Part shown: in pieces, positions 28,741-33,241 of the stretch
How positions within the stretch are numbered: the first letter of the stretch is position 1
Layout of the letters: every line of letters begins with the position of its first letter
From: Caulobacterales bacterium
GTDB lineage: Bacteria; Pseudomonadota; Alphaproteobacteria; Caulobacterales; Caulobacteraceae
DNA: 64,000 nt
Assembly (NCBI GenBank): GCA_017302105.1
Contig: JAFLCS010000005.1
Span: 73,574-137,573 of the forward strand
Direction: 5' to 3'
The notes under the pieces: model-generated
Database searches by the model: none
What the model was told of the DNA's origin: nothing
The model's input: the letters and a program-made list of their open reading frames with translations, nothing else
Position numbers and translations under genes: made by a program

Positions 28741-29100
28741 ATGAGGTGCGTATATTTCAGTCTTGCCCTGGCAACAGCTGTACCTGCGGTGATGGCGGCG
28801 AATGCGGCGTCTGCGCAAGAAACGATTGAATATACCTACGATATTCACGGTAGGCTTGTTCAAATGGATCATTCGGGATCTGTGAACGCCGGCCGCCAGA
28901 CCACCTACGACTATGACCTTGCCCACAACCGGACTGCGCTCTGGCGCGGAATACCGGTGGCGTGGTTTGAGGATGACCTCGGGGGAGACGGGCATGAGCT
29001 GGTTAAGGTCGCTGTTAATCGCATTCGTCCTGACCCTAGGACTGACGACCCCGGCCCTGGCCCAGCAGCCGATTCCGCCGACCCACTACTCGACCGATGA
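28741..29100 (+). CDS. Small secreted protein with a single YD-type repeat; its 3' end overlaps the rhs start
   Basis: Signal peptide MRCVYFSLALATAVPAVMAANAASA|QE, then IEYTYDIHGRLVQMD...TTYDYDLAHNRT. The first ~130 nt are low-GC. The last 107 nt overlap rhs in another frame, so the true 3' end is uncertain. Confidence 0.45.
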   Translation: MRCVYFSLALATAVPAVMAANAASAQETIEYTYDIHGRLVQMDHSGSVNAGRQTTYDYDLAHNRTALWRGIPVAWFEDDLGGDGHELVKVAVNRIRPDPRTDDPGPGPAADSADPLLDR

Positions 29101-32100: not shown

Positions 32101-33241
32101 TTCCGCCAACCGCATCATCAACGGCGACTACACCGGCATCGACATCGGCACCTATAGCTATGACCCGGCGGGTCGGATGGGGCGGATCACGGCGGCGGGG
32201 GTGGACAGCCGCTTCATCTATGCCGGGGCCCAGGCGATCGGCGAGTACAATGCGTCGGGCGGTCTGATCCAGCGCTATGTGCCGGGGGCGGGGCTGGACG
32301 ACTATGCCGCCTATACGTCGGGCACGGGCGGGTCGATCACGCGGTCCTGGCCGATCCCCGATCCGCTGGGCAGTGTGACAGCCCAGATCAATCCTTCCAA
32401 TGTGGCGACCCAGATCAACCGCTATGACGAATACGGTGTGCCGCAGGCGGGCTTCTCAGGCCGGTTCGGCTATGCCGGGGCGATGTACCTGAACCGCGCC
32501 ATGGCCGCGCCGTGGAACATGAGGAACCGCCAGTACAACCCGTCGCTGGGGCGGTTCATGCAGACGGATCCGATCGGGGTCGCGGGCGGCGTGAACCTGT
32601 ACGCCTATGTGGGCGGGGATCCGGTCAATGCGGTGGATCCGTGGGGATTGCAGGATTGTGAAACGGATCCCGATTGTCCGGGAGACATTGATGCGCCCGG
32701 GCGGCGCAATCTACCCTGTCCGCCATTCTGCAATCAGTACTATGACGGCCTTCCTTGGTACCAGGATGTCTGGTTCTCGGCGAACGAATGGACGGACTGG
32801 GCCGAAATTACTCTTGCCGACGTCATCCTCACGTATTGCACGCCTCGACCGCAGACCGGTACAGAGCGTGCCATCGAGTTCGTCGGCGGCTTGGGAGATG
32901 CCGTGGTTGTCGGGGGAGCATTGTCGGGACAACCCGAAATCGCTTTCGTAGGTGGGGTACTCAGCTTTGCTGCTGGAGGAGCGCAAGCGATCTACGATTT
33001 TAATCAGCGAGACGGGCGGGGGCTTGCGGGAGATGCGGCGGGCTTTGTCGTTGGCCAGCTGCCGTTGGTGCGTCAGGCTGGTCGCGGAAGCGCGCTTTTT
33101 GATGCCGGGCGCGATGCATTCGGTCGTTTCTTGCCAGGAGCAGCTCTGCGGCGCGAAGGCGTTGAGGCGGGGAGCGCTTCTCTGCAGGGGGCTGCGGGAC
33201 ATGCAGCCGGCTCGACCGCAGCGGCGAGCGCTTGCCAATGA
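28994..33241 (+). CDS. Rhs/YD-repeat polymorphic toxin, full length (1415 aa), with Sec-type signal peptide
   Basis: GGGGGAGA ribosome-binding site before the ATG at 28994. Signal peptide MSWLRSLLIAFVLTLGLTTPALA|QQ. Dozens of YD repeats (YTYDGRGNVT, TYDTFGRP, TWTYDGFQRP, LTYDAYGQVT, YGYDNLGRRT, YSYDPAGRM...). Core-end motif RQYNPSLGRFMQTDPIGVAGGVNLYAYVGGDPVNAVDPWGL ends at 32650, followed by a 196-aa variable tip. Confidence 0.92.
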   Translation: MSWLRSLLIAFVLTLGLTTPALAQQPIPPTHYSTDERGVDLTNGGYFPFVTEVVIGQPGAGGLVYGRSHIGTAWRDYLVGTINIEPGVFLGTYTVSVGPYSDAFYGRGDPSNPTFYPNIMNGSSLSWNSSADVYTYTSSTGVVALFSGALADRATPYTANGALVTSITSPDGEVLTYSYVTADLCANAACSSTTPAARLQSVTNTLGYQIKYDYNSESTVFAQRSRWMSVARVTGLNRGVDYCADTAPSCTYTETWPSISYPEDTDPLSSTTVDEMNRTTLYRNNAAGRITGIRLPGSASDNVTIAYGSDGMVDSVTSAGGTWTYDFTSAGSDMVAEVDGPNGQGLRTLSENGMVQSYYDVNNNLTVVLWWAPGQPWRIDYPTGDSVQYTYDGRGNVTEVRQIPASGSGLADIVTTATYAASCTNPVICNLPTQTTDARGQVTDYVWNATHGGLVSVTRPPLLTGTDRPQTRITYGQVYAWYRNSAGTIVQAPTPIWRPTATSACQSGTTPGCVGTVAEQVAAVTYGSTGVMNNLLPTITTARNGDASIVATTTMTYTHNGDVATVDGPLSGTADQTRFLYNANRELTGAIGPDPDGSGSLLHRAQRITRNALGLPTLIEAGTTTGYTDPNWAAFSPLQQTAVTYDTFGRPLTQRLQAGSTTYSLSQVSYDASGRPDCTAVRMNPSSFASPPTSACTAATAGSFGPDRISRATYDTMSRVASVTSGYGVTGAITNSLTYSVGSQVQSMTDGEGNVTTWTYDGFQRPRRMYFPNASGTGTSTTDYEELTYDAYGQVTSTRARDGQVTSFSYNGIGLASAINFPGSELDQQFGYNLFGQPTSLVTVGTGGQTLTRAYDALGRMTGETGPLGTVAYQWDAAGRNTRITWPDAYYAQYAYDLTGAMMEVRENGATSGAGLLAVYGYDNLGRRTSVRRRGESLANASSTYGWDGASRLISLGVNLSGTSQDTTWTLDYSPAGQVVERSLSNTLYAYTAEPTLSDAYTNNGLNQVTAVDSTSVGYDGRGNITGDGTSTWNYDSANRIINGDYTGIDIGTYSYDPAGRMGRITAAGVDSRFIYAGAQAIGEYNASGGLIQRYVPGAGLDDYAAYTSGTGGSITRSWPIPDPLGSVTAQINPSNVATQINRYDEYGVPQAGFSGRFGYAGAMYLNRAMAAPWNMRNRQYNPSLGRFMQTDPIGVAGGVNLYAYVGGDPVNAVDPWGLQDCETDPDCPGDIDAPGRRNLPCPPFCNQYYDGLPWYQDVWFSANEWTDWAEITLADVILTYCTPRPQTGTERAIEFVGGLGDAVVVGGALSGQPEIAFVGGVLSFAAGGAQAIYDFNQRDGRGLAGDAAGFVVGQLPLVRQAGRGSALFDAGRDAFGRFLPGAALRREGVEAGSASLQGAAGHAAGSTAAASACQ
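31545..32650 (+). repeat. 3' core segment of rhs that is re-iterated three times downstream
   Basis: Colinear, indel-free nucleotide matches seen by eye: 31744-32650 = 33601-34507, 32404-32650 = 35521-35767, and 31545-32212 = 36781-37448. Long runs are identical (for example gtacaatgcgtcgggcggtctgatccagcgctatgtgccgggggcggggctggacgactatgc). Confidence 0.9.

Follow-up and report, generated by a model that had tools for sequence, protein, structure and literature searches.

The rhs gene at 28994..33241 (+) of a 64,000-nucleotide (nt) stretch of Caulobacterales bacterium contig JAFLCS010000005.1 encoded a 1415-amino-acid (aa) Rhs protein, the precursor of which carries a predicted leader of the Sec / signal peptidase I type. 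The whole stretch is referred to here as the window; coordinates are positions in it, and aa numbers are those of the Rhs precursor. Together with a gene for a small protein with tyrosine-aspartate (YD) repeats, an immunity candidate and orphan modules, rhs forms a locus that is probably a polymorphic-toxin module acting from outside the cytoplasm, its product being exported in two steps, by Sec and then by a pilus or pseudopilus type machine. The Rhs protein belongs to a large alphaproteobacterial family of which the searched literature holds no earlier description. The window provides a clean example from this very large family, and the identical Rhs protein was present on 12 metagenome contigs.

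The Rhs Leader and Its Conservation

The Rhs protein matched Pfam RHS_repeat (1e-25) and NCBIfam TIGR01643, and Rhs_assc_core (TIGR03696) was matched over its full length at aa 1144-1219 (1.1e-17), the DPWGL at aa 1215-1219 being its end. The sequence GGAG lies 6 nt 5' of the ATG at 28994. The leader, MSWLRSLLIAFVLTLGLTTPALA|QQ, has R5 in its n-region, a hydrophobic core of 12-13 residues (maximum Kyte-Doolittle 11-mer of 2.84) and A-L-A at -3 to -1, and inspection of its sequence found neither a twin arginine nor a lipobox cysteine. The leader was called by a rule-based n/h/c analysis together with conservation among homologues. A preliminary description of this DNA had read the N-terminus as a cleavable Sec-type signal peptide and not as a domain for loading onto a type VI secretion system (T6SS); the n/h/c rules fitted that reading, and 99 of 109 homologues were alike. 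It had also named an upstream start bringing in a PAAR-like domain as an observation that would speak against it. The frame opens only at 28913, and the 27 residues that a start there could add hold no domain. Pfam and NCBIfam detected no PAAR, prePAAR or VgrG domain in the Rhs protein, and no anchor domain was recognisable by Pfam or by a lipobox.

A homologue search of 5.8 billion proteins returned 401 matches at E ≤ 1e-20, of which the best 120 were inspected. Nearly all of these were ca. 1400 aa long and aligned over ca. 100% of their length at 40-61% identity, and they were named from Brevundimonas, Caulobacter, Hyphomonadaceae, Glycocaulis and Terricaulis. No PAAR or VgrG-type domain appeared in the precomputed Pfam assignments of these 120 best homologues, and none of the 120 was a Xanthomonas protein. 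The conserved mature N-terminus PPxHYxxDxRGVDL was found in 109 of them, and in 99 of these a leader that is charged, hydrophobic and closed by a small-x-small site stands ahead of it; most of the remainder resembled mis-called starts. A scan of one genome per species yielded at least 547 relatives, and the best 80 of these, 42 of them with full flanks, were used for the locus comparisons. Almost all of the 80 were Alphaproteobacteria (Sphingomonadales, Caulobacterales, Hyphomonadaceae and relatives, Parvularcula), while a few metagenome-assembled records among them bore other taxon labels. No T6SS-like conserved gene cluster was found among the neighbours of the 80 related loci.

Cysteine Pairs and the Predicted Cage

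The core of the Rhs protein contains exactly ten cysteines, which form five pairs each lying within 19 residues (Table 1), an arrangement that arose in ca. 1e-5 of random-placement trials. The preliminary description had reported the same five close pairs, and the same sequences were recovered here. Conservation was scored in an alignment of 100 homologues, in which pairs 2 to 5 were kept in 94-100%. The earlier suggestion that the paired cysteines form disulfides outside the cytoplasm was strengthened by this family-wide conservation of four pairs. As the leader and the four pairs are both family-conserved, the reading of Sec export with extracytoplasmic disulfides is stronger than when it was first put forward, and the predicted disulfide pattern fits a family built for an oxidising compartment.

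An AlphaFold2 model of the mature core (aa 24-1219), made from a 43-sequence alignment, reached a predicted local distance difference test score of 86.9 and a predicted template-modelling score of 0.83. The top Foldseek matches of the model were the T6SS Rhs cocoons 8qjc, 7q97, 8qja, 7pq5 and 8cp6 (E values of 1e-38 to 1e-43), which aligned at template-modelling (TM) scores of 0.5-0.63 and 14-16% identity. The teneurin-like protein 9ifo ranked 13th, and teneurins and TcB-TcC also fell below the T6SS Rhs cores. From the model and this ranking of solved cocoons, the Rhs core is predicted to be a complete cage by itself. According to the secondary-structure string of the model, every cysteine pair sits inside one loop or hairpin joining consecutive strands, and this confinement to single loops would fit disulfides that staple loops. 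A conserved pair is thereby assigned to each of four or five loops at the surface of the predicted cage.

Toxin Tips and Candidate Immunity Genes

In the resident tip, C1282 and C1414 bracket a toxin domain with abundant glycine-zipper motifs. The preliminary description had listed paired cysteines in the resident tip (CETDPDC, CPPFC) and in orphan tip 1 (CVRKNPDGTC, CTPTATC, CLAC), all of which were confirmed, but it had left out C1282 and C1414. The family of the resident tip is rare. An exhaustive search of 1.84 billion proteins found seven representatives, all of them Rhs C-termini or orphan fragments and all rich in glycine zippers, and six of the seven have a cysteine no more than 3 residues from the C-terminus. 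In the sequences inspected, a cysteine also stands ahead of the conserved toxin region. A word-indexed homologue search with the resident toxin domain gave no matches.

Tip cysteines were surveyed in 83 homologous proteins with tips of 100-260 aa. The cysteine count was even in 82 of the 83 and exactly four in 53, and in the four-cysteine layout two stand in the first ca. 50 residues, one at ca. 56-112 and one no more than 7 residues from the C-terminus. Read along the tip, a short Cys loop comes first and is followed by a toxin domain with one cysteine at its start and one at the C-terminal end. A cysteine within the last 10 residues was found in 69 tips, where 16.7 were expected and 2000 shuffles never gave more than 30. 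The tips are not related to each other among the homologues. The resident tip and orphan tip 2 share the family layout, and orphan tip 1 has three close pairs instead. Orphan tip 1 (34511..34987) is without a C-terminal cysteine, unlike most tips, and ends in RFPHYHRRG...HRPWE, which recurs at the C-termini of the unrelated members P0074 and P0081.

The open reading frame (ORF) at 33238..33600, a candidate immunity gene for the resident tip, had no Pfam match and no homologue among the 80 related loci. This is as would be expected of a tip-specific immunity gene. Orphan tip 2 has a HEIGH zinc-peptidase-like motif and cysteines at positions 10, 30, 71 and 187 of 189. In the cassette that holds this tip (35768..36337, 36301..36783), the downstream ORF stretch has 49% G+C in surroundings of ca. 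65%, and this low value points to a foreign origin of the cassette. The features of the resident glycine-zipper tip and of the HEIGH orphan tip suggest that both would be envelope-acting toxins.

Some family members carry tips of another kind. In P0021, P0030, P0039, P0072, P0093, P0099, P0104 and P0110, the tips are 330-360 aa long with PT-HINT/Hint domains and irregular cysteine counts, and HNH nuclease domains are also present in two of these long tips. The HINT and HNH tips indicated that the family also holds probable cytoplasm-acting toxins with a second processing module.

Secretion Machines Beside Related Loci

Flanking ORFs of the 80 loci were clustered and the resulting families named by Pfam. 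Besides the small YD protein, eight flanking families were recovered, namely VirB2, VirB3, VirB4, VirB6, VirB8, VirB9, VirB10 and VirB11 of the type IV secretion system (T4SS). By tblastn, a near-complete virB2,3,4,6,8,9,10,11 set lay within 10 kb at 17 of the 80 loci, which belonged to Brevundimonas, Caulobacterales, Sphingomonas, Erythrobacter and Sphingorhabdus, and an extra VirB2-like gene stood alone beside the module at 5-6 further loci. Type II secretion system (T2SS) genes gspD/E/F/G adjoined 5-7 of the 80 (L016, L025, L045, L073 and L081 among them). In the full-flank set, a T4SS was adjacent at 10 loci, a VirB2-like gene only at 4, a T2SS at 4 and GspD only at 1, giving 19 of 42. Whether linked to a T2SS or to a T4SS, the Rhs proteins have their leader, their conserved cysteine pairs and the layout of their tips in common.

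The T4SS linked to these loci is a reduced one. It always lacked VirD4, VirB5 and VirB1; the virB operons are tightly packed, B4 and B6 leave no space in which VirB5 could lie, and B11 is not followed by VirD4. On a Brevundimonas chromosome, the virB cluster is flanked by two Rhs modules with two YD-head genes ahead of each, a third YD-head gene overlaps the end of virB11 and is translationally coupled to it, and no VirD4, relaxase or integrase was found in 38 kb. On the plasmid of Sphingomonas aerolata, a full set for conjugation (VirB1-B11, VirD4, relaxase) occupies 47-63 kb, and a separate reduced set, with a second VirB2-like gene, adjoins rhs. For the T2SS, the plasmid pASTEX02 of Asticcacaulis excentricus has three YD-head/Rhs modules around a compact cluster of gspD, E, F and G, a prepilin peptidase and pseudopilins.

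The linkage also appeared in the reverse direction. A reciprocal metagenome scan seeded by VirB4 gave 80 loci, 24 of them with full flanks, and Rhs or small YD genes were adjacent in 11 of these 24. The only genes conserved throughout were B2,3,4,6,8,9,10,11, and a relaxase family occurred at 2 of the 80. VirB4 was 65-85% identical among the loci, across two orders. The searched literature, the coverage of which is incomplete and gives no proof of novelty, held no Rhs or YD proteins linked to a T4SS.

Two further arrangements were seen. A VirB2/TrbC-like pilin gene stands divergent from the small YD-rhs operon at L038, L047, L076, L083 and L026, with no other virB within 10 kb; L038 has three copies. 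At L174, the locus of the closest relative (P0004, 60% identical), a gene for an 886-aa DUF87 / weak TrwB_AAD_bind ATPase (6783..9443) lies directly 5' of the small YD gene; the ATPase may be HerA-like or VirB4/VirD4-like. In a tree of 32 cores built by neighbour joining, the window core grouped, at 43% identity, with Brevundimonas sequences that are mostly T4SS-linked. This placement is weak evidence because the tree is star-like at 40-44% identity, and the attempt to derive the window's machine from phylogeny was dropped for that reason.

Proposed Route of Export and Its Alternatives

In the route that we propose, Sec would carry the Rhs protein to the periplasm, where it would fold with disulfides and its tip would be cleaved and enclosed in the cocoon. 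For the window Rhs we infer, by comparison with related loci, a second export step, in which a pilus or pseudopilus type machine encoded elsewhere in the genome would move the folded cage over the outer membrane; the candidates are a T2SS or a reduced VirB-type T4SS without VirD4, VirB5 and VirB1. The small YD protein could be a partner of the cage and possibly a targeting adaptor. The resident glycine-zipper tip, the immunity candidate of which is a predicted membrane protein, would then act on the target envelope, where its disulfides would stay oxidised, and the HEIGH orphan tip, with a lipoprotein-like immunity candidate, would likewise act on the target envelope. The outer-membrane step, which the preliminary description had set out as the open question, still stands as one, although comparative genomics narrowed the candidates to a T2SS or a coupling-protein-less T4SS.

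A more specific version of this route is possible and is put forward tentatively. In Caulobacterales and Sphingomonadales, the reduced VirB T4SS, which often has a second VirB2-like pilin, may be dedicated to carrying out or delivering Sec-exported Rhs cages stapled by disulfides, the window Rhs being a substrate of such a machine encoded elsewhere in its genome. On this version, a T2SS would do the same job in other members, and the YD-heads, the genes of which in some cases lie within the virB operon, would connect the cage with the pilus and the target as an adaptor.

Several observations weigh against two-step export of an envelope-acting toxin. No secretion machine was found within ca. 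82 kb of the locus in the window, and the other 23 of the 42 full-flank loci showed no adjacent machine. Small VirB5- or VirB7-like genes may escape ORF and tblastn screening. A MobA/MobL relaxase, resolvase, ParB or weak TrwB-like protein is encoded near some T4SS-linked loci, and these mobility genes, with the VirB4 identity across orders, indicated that hitch-hiking may explain part of the T4SS linkage. The HNH/HINT nuclease tips, moreover, must reach the cytoplasm, so that acting on the envelope is no family rule.

Taken further, the hitch-hiking explanation holds that T4SS adjacency reflects travel on plasmids or integrative elements and that any export runs through the general T2SS only, which appears somewhat unlikely. 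The mobility genes agree with it, as does the horizontal spread suggested by VirB4; both plasmid matches were on plasmids with conjugation genes, and experimental precedent exists for T2SS dependence and not for T4SS dependence. Against it, the linked T4SS was always without VirD4, VirB5 and VirB1 and the relaxase was confined to 2 of the 80 VirB4-seeded loci. The S. aerolata plasmid keeps its conjugative set apart from the reduced set beside rhs, the Brevundimonas island has modules on both sides, a YD-head coupled to virB11 and no mobility gene in its 38 kb, and VirB2-like genes stand beside modules even where no other virB is near.

It is unlikely that the cage, once exported by Sec, has no dedicated outer-membrane exporter and is a periplasmic or surface protein spread by vesicles, lysis or contact. 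The strong, repeated and two-way linkage to a T2SS or reduced T4SS, including clusters that lie between modules, argues against this explanation, as do the T2SS dependence of the Rhs bacteriocin Bcn-A (discussed below) and the lack of a lipobox or recognisable anchor in the Rhs protein. The loci without an adjacent machine, the window among them, would be accounted for by it, and the Sec-signalled teneurin-like YD-shell toxins have "no obvious delivery machinery" (PMC13018210).

A locus that is no active weapon, encoding an adhesin-like or structural surface protein or representing a decaying remnant, is very improbable. Orphan fragment 3 is cut short, several small genes were passed over by gene callers, and the small YD gene has lost its usual stop and overlaps rhs, but the frame of 1415 aa is unbroken and its autoprotease motif complete, an immunity-like gene is translationally coupled to rhs, the orphan modules retain recombination arms of 88-93% identity, and the identical protein recurs on the 12 metagenome contigs. 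Finally, a T6SS effector loaded on an orphan VgrG elsewhere, its hydrophobic N-terminus being a prePAAR-like or transmembrane helix, is hardly credible: the predicted cocoon is structurally nearest to T6SS Rhs cores and the gene search spanned the window and its ca. 9-10 kb flanks only, but neither the protein nor its 120 best homologues have PAAR, prePAAR or VgrG, an AxA|Q site with the conserved mature N-terminus recurs in 99 of 109 homologues, the conserved cysteine pairs and the tips bracketed by predicted disulfides agree with an oxidising compartment, and the 80 related loci have no T6SS-like cluster nearby.

The Small YD-Hairpin Protein

The gene at 28741..29100, which overlaps the rhs start by 107 nt, was absent from the account of the locus in the preliminary description. 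It is conserved: tblastn placed a homologue directly 5' of rhs at 50 or more of the 80 related loci. The protein combines an N-terminus resembling a signal peptide with two YD repeats (ETIEYTYDIHGRLV...TTYDYDLAHNRT) and a tail of low complexity. Its family comprises at least 327 clusters of ca. 70-aa proteins, and the N-terminus was hydrophobic in 117 of 120. The typical ca. 70-aa form consists of a leader, ETITYTYDAKGRLVKV.RSGTVNNGV.T.Y.HDKADNRTN and a Pro-rich end. The window gene is without the family's usual stop, and the locus of the closest relative encodes the same 119-aa form, likewise overlapping the rhs start.

In some genomes, inspection of the sequences showed the YD head fused to bulb-lectin-like, cadherin-like, FG-GAP or discoidin-like C-terminal regions, and an Asticcacaulis record annotates one such fusion region as cadherin-like. 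Fusion to lectin-, cadherin- or discoidin-like domains indicated that a role as targeting adaptor may be possible. By analogy with TcB-TcC, the small YD protein may alternatively be an edge-strand partner of the cage, or it may form a link to the pilus. At the Brevundimonas loci L086 and L087 (ctg28230, ca. 1.124-1.163 Mb), two different YD-head genes precede each Rhs gene, one with a ca. 130-aa C-terminal domain ending in VDKVGYR and the other with a bulb-lectin-like repeat.

Comparison with Known Rhs and YD-Shell Systems

Rhs toxins are usually discussed as T6SS cargo. The window Rhs shares with the T6SS Rhs effectors (RhsA of Pseudomonas protegens, 7q97; Photorhabdus Rhs1, 7pq5; Tse5, 8cp6; Salmonella bongori, 8qjc) the cocoon fold, a DPxGL Rhs-associated core, polymorphic tips, immunity genes and orphan modules. 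Unlike them, it has a Sec leader in place of the PAAR/prePAAR/VgrG module, is 14-16% identical, carries conserved cysteine pairs and has no T6SS genes nearby. The window Rhs is a Rhs polymorphic toxin, since it showed all of the defining features examined, and it is not a T6SS Rhs effector, since both the loading domain and the gene context were lacking.

Rhs toxins that depend on Sec were already on record, having been catalogued in 2012 (PMC3482391). The Rhs bacteriocin Bcn-A of Xanthomonas perforans is active in cell-free supernatant, and this activity was lost in a mutant of xpsD, the T2SS secretin (PMC7259588). Families of gspG-linked Rhs proteins were reported in 2025 in Xanthomonas (XRhs F VIII) and Ralstonia (RRhs F II) (bioRxiv 10.1101/2025.05.08.652813). 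Compared by description and not by sequence, Bcn-A and the gspG-linked proteins resemble the window Rhs in their size of ca. 1400 aa, the lack of T6SS context and the downstream immunity genes, and some relatives of the window Rhs also adjoin gsp genes, although the window itself has no gsp gene beside rhs. They differ in being gamma- and betaproteobacterial where the window Rhs is alphaproteobacterial. Bcn-A was described as having no signal sequence (PMC7259588), in contrast to the Sec-type leader of the window Rhs, and neither a YD partner, conserved disulfide pairs nor T4SS linkage was reported for these proteins in the searched literature. By analogy, the window module would work like Sec/T2SS-type Rhs bacteriocins; it departs from what is described for them in its lineage, in the conserved pattern of predicted disulfides, in tips bracketed by cysteines, in having a YD-head partner and in the alternative linkage of its family to a T4SS without a coupling protein.

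Pertussis toxin of Bordetella forms disulfides. The T4SS that exports it, Ptl, is without VirD4 and VirB5, and its cargo is delivered by Sec, assembled in the periplasm and measures 60x60x100 Å (PMC12857230). The T4SS beside relatives of the window Rhs, linked to them by gene neighbourhood only, has the same reduced gene set. No virB cluster without virD4/virB5 adjoins rhs in the window (tblastn). The cargo also differs, a single-chain YD cocoon against an AB5 toxin, and no homologue of virB7 (ptlI) was seen in the linked T4SS, though screening may miss small genes.

Other YD-shell toxins were also compared. Teneurin-like proteins (9ifo) and WapA are Sec-signalled YD-shell toxins with an encapsulated C-terminal toxin, the delivery route of which is acknowledged to be unsettled, and some toxins of this type are active only when directed to the periplasm (PMC13018210). 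Teneurin-like proteins have TIP, TTR, FN-plug, an NHL propeller and lipoprotein or S-layer anchors, none of which was detected in the window Rhs by Pfam or NCBIfam, and its 1196-residue mature core aligned best with plain Rhs cocoons. WapA belongs to monoderm hosts, whereas the window organism has BamA, Skp and Lpx genes. TcB and TcC join edge to edge in published structures, and the small YD partner may be analogous. The TcB-TcC cocoon is likewise a YD shell around an autoproteolytically released toxin, built of two polypeptides, but its structural match to the window Rhs core was at TM 0.2-0.3, and the window locus has no TcA, no SpvB or propeller domains and no type 10 lysis-cassette context. 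The window Rhs is neither a Tc BC component nor a teneurin-like protein.

How Sec-exported YD cages leave diderm cells is an acknowledged gap (PMC13018210; bioRxiv 10.1101/2025.05.08.652813). Cultured relatives carry the module beside a compact T2SS (A. excentricus CB48, pASTEX02) or a coupling-protein-less T4SS (Brevundimonas; S. aerolata), and these machine-linked strains make the exit of the cage directly testable. If the T4SS link proves functional, it would widen the repertoire of T4SS functions and provide a second natural example, after Bordetella Ptl, of a T4SS taking a folded periplasmic toxin across the outer membrane, as well as a second system for studying the passage of a ca. 150 kDa folded particle through the T4SS outer-membrane complex. 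Both the toxin cassettes bracketed by cysteines and the modular YD-head partner may be of use in toxin mining and in studies of mechanism.

Organisation of the Locus and Its Surroundings

The features of the locus are collected in Table 1. At the DNA level, the core fragment of orphan module 1 matches rhs 31744-32653 (aa 917-1220) with 88% identity. The ORF of orphan fragment 3 (36781..37685) leaves homology for ca. 70 codons, in which it overlaps a convergent gene at 37504..39975 (-) that encodes an 823-aa DUF305/DUF4142 protein; fragment 3 runs into the 3' end of this gene.

Table 1. Features of the rhs locus, in window coordinates unless given as aa of the Rhs precursor
Feature	Position	Strand	Description
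Small YD-hairpin protein	28741..29100	+	119 aa; Pfam RHS_repeat 4.7e-6; predicted secreted
Rhs signal peptide	28994..29062	+	aa 1-23, MSWLRSLLIAFVLTLGLTTPALA; predicted signal peptidase I cut before Q24; rule-based call plus conservation
Mature Rhs core	29063..32650	+	aa 24-1219; opens with conserved motif QQPIPPTHYSTDERGVDL; YD-repeat cocoon
Cysteine pair 1, C185/C190	29546..29563	+	CANAAC; kept in 40% of 100 homologues
Cysteine pair 2, C243/C250	29720..29743	+	CADTAPSC; kept in 94-95%
Cysteine pair 3, C423/C429	30260..30280	+	CTNPVIC; kept in 100%
Cysteine pair 4, C505/C513	30506..30532	+	CQSGTTPGC; kept in 100%
Cysteine pair 5, C678/C696	31025..31081	+	kept in 100%; long interstrand loop in the model
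Rhs-associated core / aspartyl autoprotease region	aa 1144-1219	+	C-terminal end of the mature core, DPWGL
Resident toxin tip	32651..33241	+	aa 1220-1415; cysteines at tip positions 3/9, 23/27, 63/195 of 196
Candidate immunity gene, resident tip	33238..33600	+	ATG overlaps rhs stop (ATGA); hydrophobic, probably a membrane protein
Orphan module 1	33601..34987	+	core fragment 33601-34510, then a different tip; tip cysteines 4/13, 28/34, 58/61
Candidate immunity gene, orphan tip 1	35000..35329	+	109 aa, soluble; no Pfam/NCBIfam family match
Orphan module 2	35521..36337	+	core fragment 35521-35767, 93% identical to rhs aa 1137-1219
Candidate immunity gene, orphan tip 2	36301..36783	+	lipoprotein-like N-terminus MFKIDPFVAKVTILIAICIQMAGC; 49% G+C
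Orphan fragment 3	36781..37463	+	core piece, 85% identical to rhs aa 851-1078; without DPxGL, without tip

The preliminary description had seen no vgrG, hcp, tss, PAAR, TpsB or type I secretion system (T1SS) genes in the window, and the same was true here of the window and ca. 9-10 kb on either side. From ca. 9 kb left to ca. 10 kb right of the window, Pfam identified no genes of a T6SS, T2SS, type V secretion system, T1SS or T4SS, and vgrG, Eag-type chaperone and tss genes were likewise absent from this range. A tblastn search of the window with the T4SS and T2SS proteins from related loci gave no matches. All other Pfam annotations of the called genes in this range were housekeeping functions, for example recA, a Mur ligase, fliI/fliJ, sodB, groES/EL, mutY and a CcrM-like methylase, as well as bamA, skp, lpxD/A/I/B, rpsB and tsf. 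Judged by its lpx and bamA genes, the organism is a diderm with lipid A.

Upstream of the small YD gene, and divergent from it, is a thioredoxin-fold gene (28075..28686 (-), AhpC-TSA/Redoxin, CPGC motif). A dedicated oxidoreductase role for it was considered and rejected; because none of the 80 related loci has an equivalent, it is regarded as a coincidental neighbour. The genes fliI and fliJ (6472..8240) stand alone amid metabolic genes, with no other flagellar genes in the window, and motA lies ca. 6 kb left of the window start.

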